A stretch of DNA of 64,000 bases from Stegostoma tigrinum (lineage: Eukaryota). The position numbers and the translations under genes are program-made. The stretch covers positions 20,899,410 to 20,963,409 of the forward strand of contig NC_081366.1 of assembly GCF_030684315.1 (NCBI RefSeq), written 5' to 3'. Shown here in pieces: positions 7,238-52,401 of the stretch (within the stretch, counting starts at the first letter, position 1; the number at the start of each line of letters is the position of its first letter). Below the pieces are notes generated by a model. The model saw only the letters and a program-made list of their open reading frames with translations. It made no database searches and had not been told where the DNA came from.

Positions 7238-8727
7238 CTTAGCCCATTATTAAGAATGAGATCGAAGAGTATGTGGAAGTGCACAATAAATTGGGCTGAG
7301 TCAGCACAGCTCCATCAAATGGGAGTGATGCCTGACAAATTTGTTAGAATTCTTTGAGGAGATAACGAGCATGTTAGACAAAATAGAGATCATTGATGTA
7401 ACAAGGTGTGGAGCTGGATGAACACAGCAGGCCAAGCAGCATCTTAGGAGCAGAACAGCTGATGTTTCGGGCCTAGACCTGAAACGTCAGCTTTTGTGGT
7501 CCTAAGATGCTGCTTGGCCTGTTGTGTTCATCCAGCTCCACACTTTGTTATCTCGGATTCTCCAGCATCTGCAGTTCCCATTATCAGAGATCATTGATGT
7601 GATCTATTTGGATTCTAGAAGGACTTTAACAAGGCACTGCACAGGAGGCTGCCCATAGTGTTCGGGCAAAATACTGGCAGGGACAGACAATTGGTTGCAT
7701 GGCAGAAGGCAGAGAGTAGGAATAAAGGGGTATTTTTCAGGATAGCAGCTGGTGGCTCATGGAGTTCTGCTACTCATATTATGCAATAATGATCTAGATG
7801 AAGGAACTGAGGATATTGTGCCACGTTTGCAAATGACACAGAGCTAGGTCTAGGAACAGGTAATGTTGAGGAGGAGGGTAAGCTACAGAAGGATTTGGAT
7901 AGTTAGGAGAATGGACAAAGAAGAGGCAGATAGAATATAGTGTGGGAAAATGTGAGGTTATACATTTGTTAAAAAGAATGAAAGGCATAGACTATTTGAT
8001 AAATGGGGAAAGGTTTCGGAAATCTGAAGTACAAAAGGACTTGAGAGTTCTGGATCAAGATTTTTTTAAGGCCAACATACAGGTTCAGTTGGCAGTTAGA
8101 AGGGCAAATACAATATTAGCATTCATTTCAAAAGGGCTAGAATACAACAGCAGAGATATGCTGCTGAGGCTGTAAAAGGTTCTAGAAAGACCACAGTTGG
8201 AATATTGTGAATTGTTTTGGGCCCCTATCCAAAAAAGGCATTGGAAGCAGTCCAGAGGAGGTTGACAAGAAAGATTCTGGGGATGAAGGTCTTATCACAT
8301 GAGGAGTGGTTGAGGACTCTGGGTCTGTACTCAATGGAGTTTACAAGGATAAGGACGGGGGAGAGATCTGATTGAAATTTACAGAATACTAAGATGTCAG
8401 GAGTAGAATGCAGAAGTGGAGAAGATGTTTTCACTAGTCGGAGAAACTAAGACCCAAGGGCACAACCTCAGATTGAAGGGATGATACTGTAGAACTAAAA
8501 TGAGGAAAAATTTCTCCAGCCAGAGTGTGGTGAATCTGTGGAGGCTAAGTCATTGAGTTTATTTAAGACAGTGATTGATCATTGATTAGTAAGGGGATCA
8601 AAGGTTACATAGAGAAGGCACATAATGGGTTGAGAAATAGATCAGCCATGATCGAAGGTGGAGCAGACTTGATGGGCTGAATAGCCTAATTCTGTTCCAA
8701 TACGGTGTTATGGTGTTATGGTGTTAG
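7238..8727 (+). mobile_element. 5'-truncated CR1 LINE (RT domain to 3' tail), decayed
   Basis: Fragmentary translations CLTNLLEFFEEITSMLDK, DVIYLD, FANDT, GKCEVIH, KDLRV, ANTILAFISKGLEY and RPQLEYC, with stops and frameshifts. It ends in a tandem (atggtgtt)n tail and is interrupted by a family A element. Confidence 0.9.
7400..7585 (+). mobile_element. Penelope-derived fold-back element, family A, nested in CR1
   Basis: Perfect 15-bp flanking direct repeat agagatcattgatgt (7385-7399 / 7586-7600). The inverted arms meet inside the hammerhead stem II (gtttcgggcctagacctgaaacgtc). Confidence 0.9.
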
Positions 8728-8945: not shown

Positions 8946-9465
8946 AAACTCACACTCAGGACCTTGTTATGAATTTCTACAGCATCCATTGTATTTGTTT
9001 CAAGTCTCCAGTATCAAAGGTGCTTAACTCTTATTTGAGTGCCACATTAAGAAGTCTGGATATTCAAGGCTGTTACAATGAGGAATGTTGGGTGTTTCAT
9101 AAAATGTTATAGTGAAGAGTGTGAGATGTATTTTAATGGGAAATGTTGGGTGAGTTTAAGGTAAATAAGAAGGAATTATAGCTATAGATAAATCCAGACG
9201 TATGAGGAAATGAGAGTACATGTGCAAATTACATGGACTGAAATAATTTCTGAAAGTTTATATTTTATTTGTAATGCAGATTCACTGCTCACAGTTATAG
9301 TTTTCATGGTTATTATGCAATTTTATTCAGAATGAGATAAAGAGCTCAGGCTGGAACTGACTTGAGTTCCTTCTCACTGTACATATCTAATACTCTACAG
9401 TATGACTGCACTGTCTCAGTAAATAGGGAGTGCATGATGTGTATCCTTCTTTTCTTTATGTGCAG

Positions 9466-9735
9466 GAGCCAATTTCACACTGACAGAACTGGGAATCTGT
9501 GAGCCCTCCCCTCACCGCAGCACTGCTTATTGTCCAGACATGGGGCTCCTCCATCGTGGATATTCCCTGAGCGACGCTGAATCTGACACAGAAGGTGCCA
9601 TTTCTCCAGAGCATGCTATTAGGTTATGGGGGAGGGGCATCAAATCCAGACGAAGCTCAGGGCTGTCCAGTCGAGAGAATTCAGCCCTCACATTGACTGA
9701 TTCAGACAACGAAAAGGATTCTGATGAGGAAGCAG
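9466..9735 (+). CDS. TENM2: Teneurin-2 internal coding exon (N-terminal intracellular domain; equivalent to human TENM2 coding exon 2)
   Basis: Polypyrimidine tract plus CAG acceptor (tccttcttttctttatgtgcag|GA, AG at 9464-9465) and G|GTATG donor (GT at 9736-9737). The exon is 270 nt, phase 1-1, and translates as (G)[89 protein letters not shown](G). This closely matches the teneurin-2 motif [37 protein letters not shown] as I recall it. The ORF-track entry 9540..9791 is part of this exon plus intron read-through. Confidence 0.95.
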
Positions 9736-11224
9736 GTATGTGCATTTATAAGCTGGTAAAAGCACAGCCTTCAGTCTTGCCACCACATTGAAGTGGGAAC
9801 TTGCTGCTCATTGTAGTGTTGACTGTTTTTAATGTGGTGGTACAGTAAGCAGGATAAGTTTGCAAGGGATTCCATTTTATACTGACTTACAAAAGGGCTT
9901 ATGCCCCTGATACTTTAGGCCTGTTCTTATTTCATGGCTTAGGTCTTCAGGAAGTTTCTGGAGTGGCAGAATGAGATAATGAACACATGTAATAAAGCCA
10001 TGACACTAGTGTCTTACCGTGGCTCAATATCCGGTTTAGTGGCTGGAGATTTGAACTGAATAACTCATATTACTGAGTATTCTTCATAATTTCCAAAAAT
10101 ACATAAAACATACCCAGTGCACAATGACTGGTCTAACACATCACTTGGCAAACAAACATTGACTCACTGACTTGTAGCAACTTAGTTGACTGTGCGATCA
10201 AGTAGTAAGGTCAAATTGCTATACTTTTATTAGAGGGCCACATTTTGACCCTTTCATTTAATAATGGAACCTCTTTATATGACAACAGTAAAAAGCATTT
10301 GAGCTGCAATAAGAGTACCAGGTTTTACTCAGCCAGCAGGTTTCCTCCTTCCACTTGTGAATGTATTAGCACAACATATGGCTGATTTATATGCTAACAC
10401 CTAAGTTTATTCTATTTGCTGTAGGGGAAGCTAGTCATTAAAGCAGCATTTGATTATGATTTGATTATTGTTGGTTGTGTCTTTTAACATTCGGCTGGTC
10501 ACTTCTTTGTGTTTTTGAGTGTTTTCTCCTGTATGTATGTATCCAGTTTTAGCCCCCAAACATACTAATATTGACTTTGTGGAAAAAATGCAGGAGCTGA
10601 TTGTATTTATAACAATAGTATTCAAGAGGTAGGGCTGTTTACTCTGACCTGGTGGTGATAGCATTGAGATTTTTGGTGAATAAAAGGATTGGACTGTGTA
10701 TTGTGGATAGATTATTAAAGCTAGATATGAACTGTAAGACGATATGCCACAGGTAGAAAATACTATATGTTAATCAAACAGCCTACCAAAATGGCATAAA
10801 GTATTTTTTGTCACAGAATTACTGGCTTCTGTGTAAAAAAAAATCAAAACACACAACGGATACAGTTATATCATAAAAATTTGACAGCAACTTGACAAGT
10901 TCCTGAATGAACAGCACGTTTCTATCAATAAACATAAGAGTTGCTATATAACTGCAAAGGAACACTAGAGCACGGTCTGAGACATTTGTGGTTCTTTACC
11001 CACTCACTTTTTTTCATTTGTTGGGAGGCACATGCAATAACATGTTTTACAACACTCTGATGTATTATGGCTGAACTGGGAACAAGAACAATTTTTAAAG
11101 CCTTTGATATGAATATAAATCTTTAGTGTAAGATTCAAGTCAACATTGATATAATTTCTATTGTCAGTTGAACTTACTGAGGTTCATCTGGCCATCTGAT
11201 GCTTCTTTTAACCAGTATAGCTGC

Positions 11225-11560: not shown

Positions 11561-11758
11561 TTGATCGTCTTCACAATAGAAATTATTTCACTTTATATAT
11601 TTGGGGAAAAGCCCTTTAAATTTGGAGTAACTTAAATATTATTTTATGTAAGTGTATGAAATCAAAAGGGCAAGGAAGAAGCTGGCTGAGGAGATGTGAT
11701 CGCAGCGAACCCATCTTCATGATTCACCTTGTGAACTGCTTTTTCTGTCAAAATGCAT

Positions 11759-12094
11759 GGATTGTCCAGCATCTGCAGTTGCCATTATCACTGATACAAT
11801 TTTAACCTCACTGCGAAGCCTCTTCGAGGGATGCCTAACCTGAAGAAGTTACCCTCCTCCCTCTGGACCAACTTCAGGGAATCTCTCTCCCACTGCAACT
11901 CTCTTGTAATCTCTTCCTCTCCACCTATCTTGTTTTCTCTCCATCTTCGGTCCGCCTCCCCCTCCCTATTTATTCCAGAACCCTCACCCCATTCCCCTCT
12001 CTGATGAAGGGTCTAGGCCCGAAACGTCAGCTTTTGTGCTCCTGAGATGCTGCTTGGCCTGCTGTGTTCATCCAGCCTCACATTTTATTATCTT
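11759..12094 (+). mobile_element. Circularly permuted 336-nt Penelope-derived unit (family A) with intact hammerhead motif
   Basis: Starts with ggattgtccagcatctgcagttgccattatc, the terminal block of other family A copies. It ends at cacattttattatctt, the block that immediately precedes that terminus in other copies. It contains a pyrimidine-rich spacer and the ribozyme core. Confidence 0.8.
12001..12028 (+). ncRNA. Minimal (PLE-type, type I) hammerhead ribozyme motif
   Basis: CTGATGA-A-GGGTC-TA-GGCCC-GAAA-CG-TC: all catalytic-core nucleotides are present, with an extra A after A9 and a palindromic ACGT stem III. Predicted cleavage is after C12028. Stem I in cis is only about 2 bp. Confidence 0.75.
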
Positions 12095-15000
12095 CCACTG
12101 GCCATCTGTTTTGTGGTCGGAATTTCCTAGCCCCATCAGGCAGAAATAGACAAGAAAAGAGAAAAGCCCAATTACGTGGTCAGATGTCCTACCTCTGTTC
12201 TGTTGTCCCCTATATTCCAGTGGTGGTGGATGTGCCGGTGGTGGAACGGCTCTGCACAGTTCCCCAAAATTGCCCAAAAAGCCAATTAAACTCACTATGG
12301 GCTTCTTACATTTTCAAATGTTTCTGGACAGAAACAAATGTTTAAGCCACTGTCTGTGTCAGACCAACTGAATGAGTGTGAGCACCATGCCCGTGGCATA
12401 TCAGGGAAGCAGAAGGAATTGTAAAAAGGGAAATGAAAATACTTTACAATGTTTAAATCACATGGGTATCATTGCAGCAGTCCATCAGAAGTCAGTGGAG
12501 AGGCTGGAATGAAGAATTTTGCCAATTCAGATCATCATCACCTCCTGGGCATAATGTAGACATTACAAGCAGTGAGCATAATCATCTAGACTCCAACTAA
12601 GCAACAGGAAGTCTGCAGCTGGAAATAGGTGCTGCAGCCACAGTGTGTTAGGCTGTAGAGATAAAGCAAACCAACCCGCACATGAAGGTCAAAACATTGA
12701 GCCTCTAGAGTCCAAAATAGACTAAAGAGAGTCACATAGGTGAAAGATGCATTAATGGAAGCACAGAATCTGTAGTCAGATGCAAATGGATATAACTAGA
12801 AGGAGCCTGTTGGTGCTTTCATCAGTGTGGATCTGTGTAACAGCTCACAGGCAGTACACATCAGTGCTTCACCTAGGTGACAGATGCCTTCTTTACCAAT
12901 GCTGAACAACACACCAGCCTGCCCACTGATGAGACAACACAGGCTCAGGGGTATTGGATTTGGTGCTTGGTGCAGTCACCTAAAGCCCTGCATTACTTTT
13001 CTGCATCGGTGTTCGGCAATGTGTTAGTCTTCTGTGCTCCATTACATGGTGTACCAGAAAGATAAAGACTTTGAGGGCAGTGAGGCAAAGGACAGGTCAC
13101 TGGGGCAGGGGCACGGAGTGAGACAGGAGGAGGAACGAGAGGCAGACAGAGATTTCACTGAACAAAAGGGTGTCTCTAATGCATGATAACATGATCTCTG
13201 CTTTCTGCCCTCCCAGAGGAAGACTTCCTTCCTCTCTTTGTGGATGTAGGTCTTGGGTTCCCCGTGACATCTCAGGTCGATATAGTTCAGCACAACCAGC
13301 AATCTTGGTGATGGCTGCCTTCAGTGTTTGAAACTCGCCTCCATTCATGATTCCATTAGCTTTAATAAGACAGGAAACCCGTCTCCACAAAATTTAAGAG
13401 TTCATCTTAAGGAAAGTAAAGAACGCAGTCAGTGAGTTTCTGACACAAAATTATATGTGACTTCTCATTTCTGTCTTCAAGAGGAAAATCATGATCTTGT
13501 GTACTGTTGCACGCATTATTTCTCATCATTCTTCTGCAGCTTTTGTTACAATTGCTGTACCAACACCGTGACGGAGCAAAACCTTTCACCAGAAGTCCCT
13601 GTTCATTTGGCTATCATGCAAGCCTTTACTGGTGTTATAAGTATTTTTAGAAGTCCAGACATGCAGCAATGGATAATTGTGCAACACTTCAACATATTTT
13701 ACCATCTTTGTGTGTTGCTGCTGTTTTATTGTTAATGGGGATTTGCCTGCCTGTGTCTCTATCTCATTAGGCTGTATTGGTTGTAGGTGCAGAATTATTT
13801 GTCTTCATGAAAATTCCAGGAGATGACAAATTCTACCCACAAGTGGCTGGTAGACTTATTAAAAATTGAGGGAGAGGAATGTGATTTTTTCATTGTGAAA
13901 CAGGGCTTGGTTGCCTCAGCATAAATGGGACACCATTAACATTGCTCCTCGAAACAAAAACTGTGTACAGAGCTCCTGGAAGGAAAACTTATAGTTTTCT
14001 AAGTGTGAGCACGAGCCTCCTGATGTTCCAATGAGTGGCTCAGTGTGAGCAGGATTATATTGTACAAACATAAGTTTGTCTTAATCAGTGGGGGAAGCTT
14101 TCTGTCACACTCAGAATGCAGATCTTAACCCATGATATTCAAACTGGTGAGCCTATTCTGACACATTTCAGCAACACATATTACTTCTTGCAGTCTCATA
14201 TGGTCTTGTTAGCCTAGTAAGTTGAAAATGTGGTTTAGGAAGCAAGTTCCTATTTGAATTCTGTTGGAAATGTTATCCAATACTGTGCCAGGCAATTGAA
14301 AGTGGTCTCATAGGTGTCAGCAGCTATGCACAAAAGAAATTGCAAATAATGACAATTGAAAACTAGGGATTTATAATTGGATGGATTTGCTTGTACTGAG
14401 TTCCTATGCCGTTTCATTTTCTTTTTAAATGAACATGTTCCTTTGTTCCTTCTTATCATGAGACTTTTTTATTAATATTACAAATTGTTCCAAACATTTT
14501 GCATGCCTGACTGATGGTCCTGCTGTCAAGAAATTTTGTTGTAATGACACACTAAAGGAACAATCTTTCACAATTGGACTATGTGCCGCATAATTCTTTG
14601 TCCCTGACTGTACCTTGTTACTCAGCTTGTTTCACAATCTGCCAATGTCAATAACAGTGTGTGCCTTGCAGGTCAATATTATCTGTCTCAACCTATGCTT
14701 CTCCACATAGCCTTATCAATGACTGTGCATGCTGAGTAGCCCTATAAGTGTATACTTCTGTTTCACCACCCAGCTCCACAAGGACAGTGGTCACATTCCT
14801 GGCTTGCCTTATACAGGCAAGCATTTCATCATTGGACTGTTCATGGCAGTATACATGCTGGTGGCCAGCCCAGTTATTCCATCAGAAAATACTCGCAGTG
14901 CATATCTACCAATTGGACCGTGGGTCTCATTGTCTTGTTGACCTCGAATCTCATTGCTTGGCCTTGCACATCTAAGTATGCGTGAGCCATATCAATCTCA

Positions 15001-15712: not shown

Positions 15713-15804
15713 TTTTCTGATGAAGGGTCTAGGCCTGAAACGTCAGCTTTTGTGCTCCTAAAATGCTGCTTGGCCTGCTGTGTTCATCCAGCTCCACACT
15801 TAGT
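15713..15804 (+). mobile_element. Short family A Penelope-derived element
   Basis: 14-bp flanking direct repeat tatttcagaaggac (15699-15712 / 15805-15818). The element begins 4 nt before the ribozyme core. Confidence 0.9.
15717..15744 (+). ncRNA. Minimal hammerhead ribozyme motif
   Basis: CTGATGA-A-GGGTC-TA-GGCCT-GAAA-CG-TC. The core is intact, with a G-U closing pair in stem II. Confidence 0.65.
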
Positions 15805-16503
15805 TATTTCAGAAGGACACTATGTATTACAATTTTCACATAGTATGTATTTGGTTTCGCATGACTGTTAGTCACTAAAGGTTAGATGCCACAATGACAC
15901 AGTGAATTTCTCCTTCTAAGTACATATGAAATGCTGTGTTTATACGGTACGTTCCTCCAGCTCATCACTTTCAGTAAATGTCAAGGTAGCCTAGGAAAGA
16001 AATCAATGCAACCCAATTGATCTGTTGATCCTAAATCATCTGTAATATAAGATGGTAACATAATAGTTTATGTAAAATAAATAGACAAATCTACAGCACT
16101 ATGGTATATCTGCATGCCATCTGTACAATGTAAGATGTCTTTAAAGATGTGTTTCATTCTTGAGACATCTTGCCCTAATATAGTTAGCTTACAGTTGAGT
16201 TTCATGTCCTTAAAAATTGTGGTACCAAATTGATGATGCTTGGTGTAAAGTTCAAGCAATAAGTAAGCAGTTTAATTGGACCCAAGAACCTTGAATACTA
16301 TGTATTAAGAAATTCACTTGAGATTTCAAGCCTGGCTCCAGGGATTTCAGGACAAACCTTACATTGACTGTCCACTGTGATACTGAGAAAGTGCTGCACT
16401 GGTACGGTACAGTTACAAGTCTTTGATTACTGAGAGATCAATGACGACATGATAGATTTTGCACAACGTTTCATCACTTGTCACAAGCAGCTCTGTTTTC
16501 TTG

Positions 16504-16665
16504 GCTAACAAAGTGTAGAGCTGGATGAACGCAGCTTGTTATCTCAGAAGAAGGTCTAGGTCCGAAATATCAGCCTTCCTGCCCTTCTGATGCTGCTTGG
16601 CCAGCTGTGTTCATCCAGCTCTACACCTTGTTATCTCAGATTTTCCAGCATCTGCAGTTCCTACT
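16504..16665 (+). mobile_element. Family A Penelope-derived element with short inverted 5' arm
   Basis: 15-bp flanking direct repeat agctctgttttcttg (16489-16503 / 16666-16680). Degenerate ribozyme cagaagaaggtctaggtccgaaatatc. Confidence 0.85.
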
Positions 16666-17189
16666 AGCTCTGTTTTCTTGTCCTTTCCTTTGTTTTTGTT
16701 TCACAAAAGAGATTTTAATAAGTTTATGTCAAGTCTGTCCTCATGTTTTATGATCCAGGCAGTTTACATGCCATTTGGTAGGCCTATCTGTGTTCTTGGC
16801 CCTGAATCAAAGCAATCACTGTGTGTTTGAAGTACTCGCTAAGTTGCAAAAGAAAGTACCAGGCAGAGAACTGCTAACCCAAGAGTAAAACTTTGTGCAA
16901 AAGCATGCTTGTCAAAAAAAGATCAATTCCAGGGGGAATATAGAAGTTTCTCCATTACAAAGGGGCTGCATAAAATTTTGGAGCTTGGTGCTGTGTTCTA
17001 TGATTCTGACTTGAACAGAGCAGGATTATAAGAGTTACATTCAAACTTTCACAATTTCTAAAAGATCAAAAGACTTCCATTTGTATAACATTGATGTCAA
17101 CAGAACTGCTTTACAATGAAATGCTTTGAAATACCATTGTAAATAAGAATTCTAAAAAGCAAAAATTGTTTCAAAATGTGTTCTACAAT

Positions 17190-17649: not shown

Positions 17650-18905
17650 TTTCAGAATTGGTCAGTTAAGAAAAATCTAAATTGGAACCTATTAATGTAC
17701 TACTGATAGATTTCCAGAAAACATTTGACAAAATGCAGCCCCCACAGGTTACTGTGCAAAATAAGAGCTCATAGTGTAGGGAGAAACACATTAGCATGCA
17801 TTGAGGATTAGTAAGCTAACAAGAAACAGAGCGTGGACAAAAATGTGTAATTTCCTGGTTGATAAGATGCAGTAAGTGGAGTACTCCTGAGATGCTGCTT
17901 GGCCTGCTATGTTCATCCAGCTTCACACTTTGTTATCTTGGAGTACCACAGGGATCAGTGCTGGAGCCTCGACTATTCAAAGCTAAATTAGTAAGTTGGA
18001 AGAAGAAACAAAACGTGTAATTGCTAACTTTGCTGATGACACAAAGATAAATAGGAAACTAAGTTACGAAGAGGACATAAAGCATCATCAAAGATATATA
18101 AAATGGGTGGGTAAATGTTTGGCAGATGGTGTATAATTTAGGAGATTGTGAACTTGTCCACTTTGGCAGAATGAATAGAAAAGTAGGATACTATTTCAGT
18201 CAAAAGGGATAGTAGAACTCTTGAGTAAAACAGGCATCTTGGTATCATGGTACGTGAATCATATAAGTGCAACTAGTGATGAGGTAGGTAAGAAGAATTT
18301 GGTCATTTGTGGAAGGGGAATAAACATGGGAATGTTTTGCTACAGCTGTACATTGTGGGCTAAACTACAATTGGAATATAGTGTACAATTTTGGCCTAAT
18401 ATGTAAGGAAGGCTATTAAGGTGTAGTAACCAGTTCACAGAAGTTTCAATCAACTGATACCTGTGATATCTTACGGAGAAAGGTTGTGCCAGTACCTATT
18501 GCAAACTGGAAAAATAACTAATAATATTTTAAGCACACATAAGATCCTGTAGGGATATGACAGAGTGGATACTAAAAGGATTGTTTCCCATGGGAGAGCA
18601 AATTAGACTGGAGGACACAGTTTAAAAGTAAAGGGTCTCCCATTTATGGTGGAGATGAATCTTCTGAGTCTGTAGAAGTCTTTTTCCACAGTGCAGCGAA
18701 GGTTAGTTCATTGAATTTGTTAAGGTGACGGTAGATAGATTCTTAACTGATAATGAAGTCAAATGTTATCGGGGTAGTTGGGAATGTGGGGGCTGAGTTT
18801 GCGAACAGTTCATCCATGAATTATTCAGTAATGGAGCTCGCTCAAGGGCTTAAAAGACCTACTCCTTTTTGTAATTTGTATGTTTGTAATGTATGTTCCT
18901 ATATG
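17650..18905 (+). mobile_element. Decayed CR1 LINE RT fragment to 3' end
   Basis: Motifs DFQKTFDK, SGVPQGSVLEP (split by an insertion), FADDTK and QLEYSVQFWP. Confidence 0.85.
17885..17938 (+). mobile_element. Tiny family A fragment nested in the CR1 GVPQG motif
   Basis: 8-bp flanking direct repeat tggagtac (17877-17884 / 17939-17946). Confidence 0.85.
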
Positions 18906-38337: not shown

Positions 38338-38472
38338 CAGACCCTTCTTCAGGACTGAATACCCGGAATGTTGACTGCTCCTTTCCTCCAGATGCTGCCT
38401 GGCTGGCTGTGATCTTCCAGCCTCCCATTTGTCTACCTCGGATTCCAGCATCTGCAGGATTTTTTGTCTCTA
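38338..38472 (+). mobile_element. Penelope-derived short element (family C variant)
   Basis: gacccttcttcag...cccggaatgttgactgctcc...gatgctgcctgg...ggattccagcatctgcag shares architecture and terminal motif with families A and B. Confidence 0.65.
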
Positions 38473-40879: not shown

Positions 40880-41036
40880 GCAAAAGCTGACGTTTCAGGC
40901 CTAGACCATTCATCAGAGAGGTCGAGGCCCGAAACGTCAGCTTTTGTGCTCCTGAGATGCTCCTTGGCCTGCTGTTTTCATCCAACTTCAGACTTTGTTA
41001 TCTTGGATTCTCCAGCATCTGCAGCACCCATTATCT
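40880..41036 (+). mobile_element. Family A element with inverted 5' arm carrying a - strand hammerhead motif (40889-40916)
   Basis: 11-bp flanking direct repeat cttacataagt (40869-40879 / 41037-41047). The minus strand reads CTGATGA-A-TGGTC-TA-GGCCT-GAAA-CG-TC. Confidence 0.88.
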
Positions 41037-42989
41037 CTTACATAAGTACATCAGTGTATTAGAACAGAATGCAGAATATAGTTTTGCAGATGCAGAGAAG
41101 GTGCAGAGAATGATCAATTTTAATAAATGAGAGGTCTGTTCATAAGCCTGATAACAGCAGGGAAGAAGCTGTTCTTAAATCTGTTGGTTCCTTTTTTTTT
41201 CAAACTTTCGTATCTTCTGCCTGATGGAAGAGCCTATAACCAGTGTGGGAAGGGCCTTTTATTATGTTGGCTGCTTTCCCAAGACAGTGGGAAGTATCGA
41301 CAAAGTCAGTGGAAGAAAGGCTGGTTTTTCTGCTTAGAGGGAACTACACATTGAAAATCTCCTCCATAGCACGCTCCAAAAGAATTTCCAGTAGGGAAAT
41401 TGAATTTTCCATTGGGTGATTCAATTATGACTGGAGCCCTCCAAAAGTTTCCAAGTAAAAACTTTTTGGTTTTTGGATGGTTCTGATGAAATTCTCTAAT
41501 ATAGTTACTAGAGAAAATTTAAAATATACTTTGTAGTATGATGGGAATTTGAGTGCAAGTTCCATTAGAAAATTAAACATTGAAACAAAATCTATTCAGT
41601 GACTTGTGGATCGAGGTCATCATGGCAAAATTGTAAGATGTTCTGTCTTTTTCTCACCCAAGCTCCCATCAGATTGCATAAATGTGAATGCAGCTTCTGA
41701 CAGTAACCTTTTCAGAGCTATTAACTTATACGACAGATAATTCTCTATATTTATGCTATTTAGTAAAAGACTGACATTCCACCCCCCCCCACCTCCTTTC
41801 AGACAGACCACTTTGCACTCACCAGTAGGAATCTCTTTCAAATTCCACCTGTGGGAGGAGAAAAAAAGAACAGGGGAAATGGAATCAGGTCAAATTGATG
41901 ACACAAAACGCCTGCTGGACAACGTACAGTCACCAAATGATTGCCTATAATGGCTGAAACTGTACTTTATAACAAAGCTGTCAAGTGTAACACTACTTGG
42001 CAAGAGAATGAACAATCCTTCTTCACTACATATATTGCTTTGCAAGTGGTTGTTTCGTCACCACTACCTTTAAATTCTTGGCTCCAGGGCTATTTTAGAT
42101 AGTCACAAGGTACATCTATGATGAAAAGCAAAGCAGCTGACCATAGATGCATTGAGCTGAACATGGTTGCATTATCCTCAAGATGAAGCATCAAAACAGT
42201 TTCATTTTACAATGCTCTTATTACCACCAAAGGTAAATCACTGAAGATATGAGTGAAATACAGGTTTCTGCCAGAAAGATGTGAGCTCAGGTCCTGACTG
42301 AAAATGGGAAAGAAAGTAAGAAAGCTAGAAAGATGCAGTGTGATGAAACTTCAACAATACCAATGCATCTATGTGGAAAGAAAAATTGAGTTCTGTAGCA
42401 TTAGTGTATCCACAATCAGCCTTTCTTTACAAAATCATAAAAAGAAGGGTCATAGCTCCTAAAACTTGGGCTGTAAATTGACTGTAAGCAAGCATGAAAT
42501 CATAGCCTGCCAGCATTTTTTTAATCTCCAGCCACCAGCGTACACTTCTTGTTAATTTATGAGGGTAAATGTAATGGCAACTCTCAAATTATGCCAAAAT
42601 GTATTTTAATGGGAGATTCAAGTAGTTTTTTAATAAGCATTTTGAATAACTTACAAGATAGAATTGCAGGAACTGCTGGCTGATTTATGTCTGAAACAGG
42701 TTGTGATTAATATCGCTTAGCGTGGATTCCATGAGCAGAATCTGGCTGAATTTGTTTTCTCGCTTTCCTAGCTTTTTTCATTGGTGTGAAAAATTAGTGG
42801 TTGCTTTCAGGAGTCGTCACTGTTTCTTCATGTTGCGTTTCTTATTGAGGACATTCAATTGCCGATAATCAGGCATTCTCATTGAAACAAGGACACATCT
42901 GTGGTAATCATAGAAAATCTGTGTTGTTAAGGAATCCTATATTGTGCATCAAGTCACAAATGACAGAACAGTCAGAGTTCAAAGCCGGG

Positions 42990-45374: not shown

Positions 45375-45946
45375 AATTACATTTACAGCACCCTTTCATT
45401 ACCTCCAGAATTCTCAGCACCAGTAAAGTACTTTTGAATTATAGTTACAATTGTACTGTAGGAAACAGAGCAGCCAATTTGCACACAGCAAGCCCCCTCC
45501 AAACATAACCTGATCCTCTCTGGTGAAGGGTCTAGGCCCGAAACGTCAGCTTTTGTGCTCCTGAGATGCTGCTTGGCCTGCTGTGTTCATGCAGCCTCAC
45601 ATTTTATTATCTTGGAATTCTCCAGCGTCTGCAGTTCCCATCATCTCTGATCATTTCTTTTATTGTCATGTGGTCAGGGGATATTTATTGACCAGGGTAC
45701 CAGGTAAAGTTTGCTACTTTAACTCTAAAGAGTGCCGTGGAAACTTTCACAACCAGCTGAAATGGTAAATGATGCAGCCTCAGTTTAACAACCTCTACAT
45801 ATGCAACATTTACAGTTTTACAGCATTATAATAGCACTACATTGGAGTGATAGCCTTCCTGCTTGCGCTCAAATCCTGAATTGAGATTTTTGAACCCAGA
45901 ACCTTGTGTCTCAGAGACAAGAATACGAGCAACCAAGCTACAACCA
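45375..45946 (-). mobile_element. Deu-domain-type SINE (SacSINE1/AmnSINE1-like), split by a family A insertion
   Basis: gtaggaaacagagcagccaatttgcacacagcaag...cctcagtttaac...gaacccagaacct...tctcagag matches the Deu-SINE layout as I recall it. Weaker relatives lie at about 40490-40700 and 43880-44150. Confidence 0.6.
45516..45646 (+). mobile_element. Family A element with mutated hammerhead (45520-45547)
   Basis: CTGGTGA-A-GGGTC-TA-GGCCC-GAAA-CG-TC, with an A6->G change in the core. 6-bp flanking repeat ctgatc (45510-45515 / 45647-45652). Confidence 0.88.
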
Positions 45947-47065: not shown

Positions 47066-47443
47066 ATGCACCCAGTAAAGTCCCCTCAGGAGCTTATATT
47101 TTTCAGTTCAGTCACCAGATACAGCCCCAGATTGTCTATCTTTCCATGTATTGAATGCATGAGGGAAAAACACAACCCTGTCTTCCCAAAAATGTCCACG
47201 TTGCAGGGGAGTGAATTCTCTCCATACTTCATAAAGGTTAAGAAAATAAAAAACAGATAGGTAATAAAAATAATTAATATTGATTACCTGCCAATTGCAT
47301 AAACTTGCAGTCTTAATGTCTGAATTCAATTAAACTAAATCTTGTTTGATTGATGTCATTTCTTGATGTTAATGGATTCCTTTTATCTTCAAACAGTCAC
47401 TACAAGAATTAGCTCAGAGCAAAACAGGTTCAGTTATGCCAAT

Positions 47444-47636
47444 ATAATAAAATGTGAGGCTGGATGAACACAGCAGGCCAAGCAGCATCTCAGGAGCACA
47501 AAAGCTGACATTTCGGGCCTGGACCCTTCATCAGAGAGCTCTGATGTGCTCCTGAGATGCTGCTTGGCCTGCTGTGTTCATCCAGCCTCACATTTTATTA
47601 TCTTGGAATTCTCCAGCATCTGCAGTTCCCATTATC
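47444..47636 (+). mobile_element. Young family A fold-back element with perfect 57-bp inverted arms and a - strand hammerhead motif (47507-47534)
   Basis: Arms 47444-47500 and 47545-47601 are exact reverse complements. 14-bp flanking direct repeat tcagttatgccaat (47430-47443 / 47637-47650). The minus strand reads CTGATGA-A-GGGTC-CA-GGCCC-GAAA-TG-TC. Confidence 0.92.
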
Positions 47637-49639
47637 TCAGTTATGCCAATGATCCTTTGTTTTACCCAAGTCTGTTCAGCAAAAGAAAGTTGATAAAAGA
47701 AAAAAAAATCAATGTCCCACATTTTAGGGTTTCCCAATTCAGCCTGTCACACATCCAGGTAAGTACTAAATTAAAGAAACGTAAGAACATTCGTTTCTAA
47801 TGTAAAGCTTCTTTTTTTGCCAGTCTCAAAATTTATTAAAGAGAGTGGATAAGTCTTTGGAAGAAACCATGTTAAGCTAAGTGAAGTGCTACAGTCTGGT
47901 GAAGTGTATTGTTTGCTCTGACTTCTATTTAATATTCTTTTTTTAACAAATATTAACTATTAGTTTTAGTCTGAGCTAAACGACAACAGTGAGGTGTTTT
48001 CTGTCAATCACTAATCAAAAGAAACAGTAATTTACACATATGCTTCAATGATAATATATTTTGTTATTCGCATTCTAGTTGTTTCTCACACAAGTAAAAG
48101 TTTCAGTTCATAAAAACAGAATCTACTGATGGAAGCTGATTTTTGCTCTCATTGAATGTAAAAAGTTTGGAACTGCACATAAATCGTGATATGGCAAATC
48201 TGGTGGGGGTGAAATTATTTTTTGCCATTAGTTCATACTAAATTGGCAGCCAGCGTTTCCCTGCTACACTCCTTCTGTTCAGCTAATTTGGAAAATATTG
48301 TGAAGACTTTTAATTTTAACCAAGTGAAAGGGATGATGACACTAAGGAATAAGTCTCCAAAAGGAGAGGAGCTTGATTCTATACACTATTCTATACACAT
48401 CAGGGGAAAGAATATCAGGCCTAATGAAAAATCAGTTGCCTATTTACAACTAAGACATTTCAGGCAATGAGCAGTGAATAATTAAACTTCCAATGCCTTC
48501 TTTGCTAGTCTTTGAGCAATTGAACAATATTTGCTCATATGATTTACCTGCGTTTGAGAAGAAACAAGCTTTTGGCTTGGTAGTAACATTCCCATCTGTG
48601 ACTCAGAAAATGAAAAATGAGTGGAATCTGAAGTGCTGAATCCAGATTGGTTTCATCCTCATTGTATAGTTAGGGAAAGTATATCATCTGCAATGGAGCA
48701 CTAATTGCCCTGTTGACTGGAAGAAACATTCACATTGCAGTCTGCTAAATTGTTCATCAGGTTACAAATCACTCCACTACTTCCTACTAATTTTGAATTA
48801 TGAAGACACAAAGCAAGATACCTTTTTGAAGTAAAAGGCTTCTTGCTTTCTCTTGAGAATTGAGATCCATAAGAATGCTGTAAACAAGAGGAATCATGGC
48901 TTTCTCTATAGCAATTCGTTTGTGTTATATATCCTCCAGTCTTAGCACGCCATAGTAGTATTTGATTACCATTTTATTTCCATGAGTCTACATTTTTGTC
49001 AAATTGTTCCCTGAATCAGAAGTTGACTTTAATCTCTTACAACTGTTACATTTCCTCATCAAACAACATCTTGTGATCCTCCATTGCAGGAATATTGCTC
49101 TTTGTTACATTGCTTCATCCAGATCTCTTACTTTGCACTCTGTGCTAATTCTATTCATTATGTTTACTGGTAGGTAGGTAGATTACATTATTTGGGACTT
49201 CACTTGTGTTCTTATAAATAGGAACCATATAAACGTTGAGGCTAGTTTAGGAAATGCATATCTGCAATCTGTATCTCAGTAAATAAAAGATAATGGAAGT
49301 GTGTAAAAACTGATACTCATTCTATCCTTCACCACCTGAATTTCTGGAACGGAACACCTTACATTACATTCTCTGCACTAAAAATATCCTTGTGTAATTC
49401 AATAATGGCGTTTAACACCATTTGCTGAGCATTATTTTTTTTTCTTTTGTGCAGTTACATTTTCAGTAAGAATATTGTGTTATGTGGCTGGACTTATCAA
49501 ATTGAAATGGGCCATAACTTTTTCACACTTTATCAAAATTCAACCTTTTCACCATTAAAAAAAAAAGATGGGTCCCTGAGGATAATTTAAAAGGATGCAA
49601 ATCAGACAATTGAACTAAGCTTGTGGAAAAGTGTGGGAT

Positions 49640-51860: not shown

Positions 51861-52189
51861 TTATTTACATTGAATGTTTATACATTTGCATTTGCTTATA
51901 ATTTTCCTCATCATCTTACAGCATAACTTTTTATGAAGACGTGTAAATCTGATTTATATGATTAAGGTGAAAACCTGTTTTAAAATTTCAGATCGAAAAT
52001 AGTATCAGCGTTCAAATAGTTGAGGATTCCATGATGCATAAGCATTGGAGATAGGGGATCCAACACACAACTTATCCAGAATACTAAACTACCCATGTGT
52101 TTTAAAGCATGTATTTGTACCTTTAATGCCACAAGATCCCTGGAAATTAGATATTCTGTTGGGATAAGACCCTGAAGAAAATCTATGCA

Positions 52190-52401
52190 CAGATAGTAGA
52201 AACTGCAGATGCTGGAGAATCTGAGATAACAAGGTGTAGAGCTGGATGAACACAGCAGGCCAAGCAGCATCAGAGGAGCAGGAAGGCTGACGTTTCAGGC
52301 CTGGACCTCGAGGACCTAGGCCCGAAACGTCAGCCTTCCTGGTCCTCTGATTCTGCTTGACCTGTTGTGTTCATCCAGCTCTACACCTTGTTGTCTCAGA
52401 T
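52190..52401 (-). mobile_element. Family A fold-back element
   Basis: Inverted arms about 52219-52305 and 52314-52401 meet in the ribozyme stem II. Flanking repeat aatctatgca (52180-52189) / aatatatgca (52402-52411). Confidence 0.9.

Follow-up and report, generated by a model that had tools for sequence, protein, structure and literature searches.

The unit at 11759-12094 of the window (the whole 64,000-nt stretch of DNA that was analysed) is, judged from its sequence, a one-armed, 5'-truncated and non-coding copy of a young Neptune-type Penelope-like retrotransposon. The best explanation for the family of short copies to which it belongs, and one to which we give an even chance of being correct, is that reverse transcriptase copies a short linear RNA, jumps from one end of it to the other and may then go round again. 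The evidence for such looped copying comes from other loci and not from the 11759-12094 copy; this locus is itself ordinary, and it is highly probable that the copy is a Penelope derivative whose unit length is due to chance.

The unit runs from a 5' start of ggattgtccagc to a 3' end of ttattatctt, and element positions are numbered from the point where its two ends meet, so that +1 is 11759 and -1 is 12094. Its first part, the element start at 11759..11916 (+1 to +158), has 94% identity to the start of the full-length element L070; it opens with the "tail" (approximately +1 to +35/45) and includes, from an ATG at 11831, the first ~29 codons of the autonomous ORF, the 1089-aa ORF of L070 opening with the same residues. 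At the internal junction, 11915..11916, this ORF start is joined to the 3' UTR with ~3.3 kb skipped and with 2 nt of microhomology when compared to the UTR of an older subfamily. The remainder, 11915..12094, is the last ~180 nt of the 3' UTR or pseudo-LTR, again with 94% identity to the L070 3' end, and in L004, L011 and L012 this stretch comes after a GIY-YIG-coding stretch. The final positions, 12092..12094, are one of the two standard 3' ends of the family ("site 1") and presumably mark the start of reverse transcription; all of these features lie on the forward strand. That the two ends of the unit are contiguous in other copies within the window, as the first-pass annotation had noticed, was confirmed, and the same is true of full-length elements.

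The insertion site, 11757..12093, is seen in a contig from a related species (run X17 record 9) where 11659-11757 is followed without a gap by 12093-12344, so that the two positions adjoin. The net insertion is 335 nt, blunt and with both flanks intact, these figures being good to 1-2 nt as the letters at the join are not shown. Each flank matches only itself in a genome search and is thus single-copy, and both ends of the insert are spanned by contigs of run X1, which is of the same species and may be the sample behind the assembly; contig depth rises about five-fold near 12000. The reported lack of a target-site duplication therefore stands, and the intact flanks exclude an ordinary insertion with later deletion, which had been put forward as the alternative. 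Later deletion of a longer duplicated insertion was also rejected, as it would need to remove exactly one copy of the duplication. An open frame at 9438..9788 on the forward strand contains a teneurin intracellular-domain exon (Pfam Ten_N, E 2.9e-40, residues 9-103) and the insert is 2 kb downstream of it on the same strand. It is likely that the insert sits sense in a teneurin intron, a placement we infer with no downstream exon located, and the 64-kb window is probably mostly teneurin intron.

Copies that have only the right half of the unit run upstream into a GIY-YIG-coding frame, and a search with the protein gave 113 scored matches at 97-100% identity. Over 349 aa most of these copies show 100% identity, and there were 276,448 first-look candidates. 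The autonomous element is very young and abundant (L067-L074), and its protein is nearly invariant and apparently active. Three of the eight long copies fetched show the full start, with 3' UTR, +1 and an ORF of ~1,090 aa; full-length partial tandems have a period of 3,660 nt. The partner protein matches RVT_1 (E 1.9e-5) and GIY-YIG (E 0.004), both below the Pfam curated cut-offs, and it has the motifs DKG, YIDD and VY..CxxC..YIG. It also has a CX4CxxC linker at residue 912. A CX2-5CxxC zinc-finger linker before GIY-YIG is described for Neptune/Nematis and as absent in Penelope/Poseidon (PMC8557442); the partner is therefore assigned to the Neptune/Nematis type rather than to Poseidon. The 11759-12094 copy, with both halves derived from the termini of such an element, is a non-autonomous derivative of an EN+ Penelope-like element.

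The joining of ORF start to 3' UTR is concentrated in one hot spot. When the genome was searched with gapped patterns of equal width, for which reversed controls gave 0, the central pattern gave 532 junction matches; the ORF-side patterns before and after it gave 235 and 40, the UTR-side patterns gave 92 and 33, and ORF anchors at about +320 and +1660 gave 0 and 1, counts to which an array contributes one match for each unit and in which the anchors may be specific to a subfamily. The breakpoints lie within the first ~160 nt of the ORF. The junction of the 11759-12094 copy, which had been singled out as the sequence to look for elsewhere, was found genome-wide in 23 exact and 36 one-mismatch matches, tandem arrays included, and is one of many junctions. 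From the first 100 listed of the 532 matches came 67 loci, of which 60 were fetched as the sample, six being already in the set and one being left out; two complex loci were set aside. After 9 of the 60 had been dropped for more than 2 mismatches, the 51 loci used fell into 27 junction classes, 16 of them seen once. The class of the 11759-12094 copy occurs on at least four subfamily backgrounds and the common classes on several, which together with the number of classes indicates that junctions have been made repeatedly in one hot spot; on this evidence descent from one inherited mini family was rejected. A back-splicing or lariat origin was also rejected, as the UTR-side starts lack a preceding AG and do not open with GT. 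A cap-derived extra G at the junction is disfavoured, as many junctions end in T or C. Among the listed joints of contigs at the autonomous start in four small sequencing runs of unrecorded kind (X6-X9) no hot-spot junction was seen, contigs being unable to show RNA ends or circles. In the literature covered, which was incomplete and did not extend to Repbase or Dfam, no account was found of junctions that cluster in a hot spot, are private to a locus and are shared by its arms.

Junctions within a locus tend to be the same. Two or more junctions were present at 44 loci (26 of the sample and 18 fetched earlier), and 35 of these loci were concordant by a strict identity test, as were 25 of the 32 with junctions on both arms, where agreement between random loci is 4.5% (0.045). 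On inspection by eye, the junction is in fact the same in five of the nine failures, which have an indel close by or a shifted anchor, two others are parser artefacts, L131 is ambiguous and L130 truly differs; both L130 and L137, the latter missed by the parser, are two-armed with a different junction on each arm. The array at L110 has six full periods of 329 nt, with 10 of 15 pairs identical, and a private substitution is present in 8/8 units across both arms, the combination of junction and substitution occurring nowhere else in the genome. The L026 junction has 5 exact copies, all at the one locus, and a single one-mismatch match elsewhere, whilst the junctions of the C27 array (8 units) and the C42 array (6 units, on both strands) are unseen elsewhere in complete lists. 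A private junction on both arms, with no parent mini locus found for the arrays searched, suggests that one short RNA was likely copied repeatedly during a single insertion, and that the point at which the unit closes in arrays is likely not the ribozyme cut. In two loci a 28-nt stretch of the ORF start is reiterated at the inner arm end, about nine times at L135:1059-1328 and about three times at L143:885-1026, which by analogy may be telomerase-like slippage. Other young long arrays have units of 302 nt (C4:124485389-124488679), 289 nt (C5:14422955-14428778) and 269 nt (C27:44581600-44583528); those on C4 and C5 have units on both strands, and the C5 array has a gap of ~3.4 kb between its arms that may hold a full-length piece.

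The ends of the arms give further information on how they were made. The 3' ends of 85 of 91 arms are at one of two sites, with and without the tail: 43 are at about -1 and 42 at +26 to +48, and the 11759-12094 copy ends at the no-tail site. The 5' ends are evenly spread: among the 75 arms that cross a junction, a single one comes within 3 nt of a multiple of the unit length and 5 come within 10 nt, where by our own arithmetic an even distribution predicts about 1.6 and 4.7. A duplication of at least 10 matching nt is present in 28 of 35 two-armed loci and 10 of 25 one-armed loci (null 4/900); it is absent from the other 7 and 15 respectively, and thus in lacking a duplication the 11759-12094 copy is not, as had been thought, unlike its relatives. 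Similarly, the exact permutation of the unit, which the first-pass annotation took as a sign of a circular template, needs only the standard 3' end and an ordinary 5' stop at one unit, and a unit length beyond what chance would give finds no support in the arm lengths. Of 33 simple two-armed loci, 26 pair an arm that ends at the no-tail site with one that ends at the tail site, and in the two-armed loci L110-L169 the inner arm ends are often at similar element positions; both patterns fit twin priming by a dimer. Overall the family has the anatomy of a Penelope-type insertion, with two 3' ends, partial tandems and an inverted arm. Its two 3' ends correspond to the pair of internal start sites, on either side of the tail, that were found in vitro for an element of the anole (PMC11167929), and direct Penelope insertions without a duplication, as well as a tail on one arm only, have been described (PMC3846280).

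If the linear jump is correct then the template would be a putative RNA of ~330 nt, deduced from DNA only, that comprises the pseudo-LTR, the tail and the ORF start and has ragged ends near -160 to -200 and +120 to +175. The enzyme would copy backwards from -1 or about +35 to the likely 5' end of this RNA and jump from there to its other end with 0-4 nt of pairing, many rounds being possible so that arrays of up to about 12 units could form. Where both target strands prime, the product would be two outward-facing arms, one for each start site and with the same junction, flanked by a duplication of 10-19 nt; the 11759-12094 copy would represent one round, with a stop at +1 by chance. There is precedent for parts of this scheme, as in vitro the anole element extends both strands and inserts independently of the hammerhead (PMC11167929), and in DRT2 exact repeated jumps on a linear RNA give concatemers (PMC12039810).

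A jump is preferred to ligation on the basis of excess microhomology, the 28-nt reiterations, stops at the junction, the run-on at L026 and the differing arms of L130 and L137. Mean microhomology is 1.96 nt, compared to 0.8 for random pairs, or about 1.6 by our own arithmetic if four doubtful values of 7 nt, which an imperfect reference has probably inflated, are set to 2; 27 of the 51 junctions have 0-1 nt. By eye, three arms stop within ~1 nt of their own locus's junction where about 0.8 would be expected (9 compared to 5.7 over a wider interval), a signal that is weak, and the last pass of L026 runs beyond the junction to -279. Several observations sit less well with the linear jump. The 8-9 exact repeats with 0-1 nt of pairing at L110, L112 and L026 would come most simply from a covalent circle, the excess of microhomology is modest and would also be expected if one jump at a parent locus later yielded circles, and the single junction of the 11759-12094 copy shows no reiteration. 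Furthermore, pairs of loci with the same junction within a subfamily are closer (0.026, n=5) than pairs with different junctions (0.043, n=152), which would fit some descent from parent minis, and the missing parents may be unfixed or unassembled. A fuller version of the scheme is offered more tentatively and we would put it a little below an even chance. In it, a dimeric vertebrate Penelope-like reverse transcriptase primes both target strands from two internal sites of one short promoter-proximal RNA and loops on that RNA in the manner of DRT2 or telomerase, and retrozyme-like arrays are born fresh within single insertions, hundreds of times per genome, without ribozyme cut or circle. If it is true, many of the "retrozyme" arrays of animals would be a side effect of looping by Penelope elements, and the same jump could give rise to the pseudo-LTR tandems of full-length elements.

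A minimal type I hammerhead motif is present at 11999..12030 on the forward strand, as identified from sequence and a constrained fold, and the first-pass annotation was right that its core is intact: all core boxes are there, with CUGAUGA at 12001-12007, an extra A at 12008, GAAA at 12021-12024 and a GUC ending at 12028, after which the cut is predicted. Helix II has 4 bp (12009-12012/12017-12020), helix I has 2 bp and helix III is absent, with a palindromic ACGU in its place. The core is conserved across 56 aligned units, and the conserved core, the extra base before helix II, G10.1-C11.1 and the palindromic 15.2-16.2 are the features of minimal hammerheads of Penelope-like elements (min-HHR), which were defined with an extra base and a palindromic centre (PMC4209133). 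In the Schistosoma min-HHR families helix I is 4-5 bp and helix II 7-8 bp, and in D. virilis helix I is 2 bp (PMC4209133); the helices here are shorter than those of Schistosoma, and a dimer folded freely does not take up the hammerhead form. Rfam gave no hammerhead match at the gathering score across the whole window, and at E up to 10 over 11700-12150 it gave no hammerhead and one chance match. The linear fold of the unit is no better than that of shuffles (z -0.07) and 47% of its circular fold is paired; nor are 5' ends of arms enriched at the predicted cut, with 2 of 91 within 3 nt where 1.9 would be expected. It is proposed that the hammerhead is carried as a passenger and plays no part in setting where the unit ends.

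In a classical retrozyme cycle the junction would instead be formed once by a template jump, after which a locus with two hammerheads would be transcribed, cut twice and ligated into a circle of ~336 nt that is copied by rolling circle by the Penelope protein. Such a cycle has been proposed for Penelope-like elements (PMC4209133) and circles have been shown for coral retrozymes (PMC7229834), and it would account for seamless arrays with one junction on both arms and for the microhomology, the core boxes being intact. However, each array would need a parent locus and none was found for the arrays at L110, L026, C27 and C42, the same junctions recur on different subfamilies, helix I has 2 bp, minimal hammerheads cut poorly in vitro (PMC4209133), and the unit is not highly self-paired, unlike the circles of PMC7229834, and has no excess of 5' ends at the cut. 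We therefore consider the cycle unlikely as the source of the arrays.

A covalent circle could also be closed at the junction itself, by ligation of the ends of a short transcript independently of the hammerhead, and then be copied by rolling circle. This would readily explain exact repeats (4-8 times) with 0-1 nt of microhomology and locus-private junctions, and ORF-side and UTR-side ends that combine freely. A capped 5' end would need to be removed before such a circle could close. Internal initiation needs no RNA 3' end (PMC11167929), a point in favour of a circle; microhomology that is about twice random, the last pass of L026 that ignores the junction and ends that misfit back-splicing, with no AG before the UTR-side starts, nevertheless leave it improbable.

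Finally the arrays could have grown in DNA, by unequal crossing-over or slippage, after a single internal deletion had arisen while a long RNA was being reverse-transcribed. A deletion of this kind is sufficient for the single-junction copy at 11759-12094, a satellite-birth scenario is set out in a preprint (bioRxiv 10.64898/2026.07.22.740005), units of L111 share some differences in pairs, and the long 5' piece of L026 fits a single jump. Expansion in DNA cannot, however, provide two inverted arms with an identical private junction and substitution, as in the 8/8 units of L110 and the 25/32 concordant loci, and it leaves unexplained the confinement of breakpoints to the ORF start, so that it is disfavoured for two-armed arrays and as a general account is quite improbable. 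The literal form of the original suggestion, in which the mechanism itself sets the unit length (by one exact turn of a circle or by precise excision out of an array), is very hard to sustain, for whilst the two ends join to within 1-2 nt at a blunt insertion, whole-unit lengths are as rare as a flat distribution would make them, the net insertion is 335 and not 336, and a missing duplication is usual in one-armed copies and is described for Penelope partial tandems (PMC3846280).

Compared with the EN+ Penelope-like elements of the Neptune/Nematis type, the 11759-12094 copy is without ~3.3 kb and codes for no enzyme, and its unit closes at a recurrent hot spot instead of showing a plain 5'-truncated end. 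It resembles the non-LTR retrozymes of metazoans, which are non-coding units of 270-390 nt with a type I hammerhead motif that occur as monomers and tandem arrays and derive from Penelope pseudo-LTRs; a preprint gives 363 bp as the mean consensus length for the single chondrichthyan it includes and argues that animal retrozymes are non-autonomous Penelope derivatives (bioRxiv 10.64898/2026.07.22.740005). The differences are that the motif here is minimal and not canonical, that the unit is not self-paired, that the units are polyphyletic with junctions that are often locus-private rather than an inherited family, and that the arrays sit inside two-armed Penelope-type insertions. In the sibling arrays every repeat of the short non-coding tandem unit contains a type I hammerhead; the 11759-12094 copy is a solo monomer, which the 2026 preprint does not count as active (bioRxiv 10.64898/2026.07.22.740005). 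The defining feature of a retrozyme is circular RNA, which has been shown for canonical retrozymes (PMC7229834). Here neither a canonical hammerhead nor a highly self-paired circle was found, and the unit is filed as a non-autonomous Penelope derivative. Of the retrozyme suggested by the first-pass annotation, a repeated, hammerhead-bearing and retrozyme-like unit thus survives, and a self-standing family does not, given the 94% identity to the ends of the autonomous element and the occurrence of the junction on several subfamilies.

Telomerase adds its repeats by tandem copying on a linear RNA. It and DRT2 (PMC12039810), both of which make tandem DNA by repeated jumps on linear RNA, would be analogues if the linear jump is right; DRT2 is an unrelated system that has a programmed, fixed template and a role in defence, whereas in this family the ends differ from molecule to molecule and the product is integrated into the genome. 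The Poseidon element of Anolis (PAc) is similar in having two internal starts around the tail, extension of both strands, no need for cleavage and a requirement for the ORF start in its template (PMC11167929), but it belongs to a different clade, and the available sections of that report describe no end-to-end jump, hot spot or mini arrays. To explain how Penelope-like elements make tandem and inverted copies and how animal retrozymes arise from them, circular templates made by ribozymes have been put forward (PMC4209133) and later expansion in DNA has been discussed (bioRxiv 10.64898/2026.07.22.740005). The junction provides a natural barcode in hundreds of young insertions, one that is private to many loci, common to all units and both arms of a locus and away from the ribozyme cut, a pattern that favours one RNA having been copied repeatedly in the course of a single insertion. 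As a near-invariant and apparently active protein is encoded in the same genome, the linear jump could be tested against the circle in vitro.

The window also contains ten further short fragments of the same or older Penelope ends, at 2148-2333, 7399-7586, 15716-15807, 16542-16672, 17881-17942, 38390-38457, 40881-41038, 45515-45651, 47436-47638 and 52188-52396. Several are two-armed with duplications, and many start near the 5' edge of the hammerhead core and cross the predicted cut without a scar.
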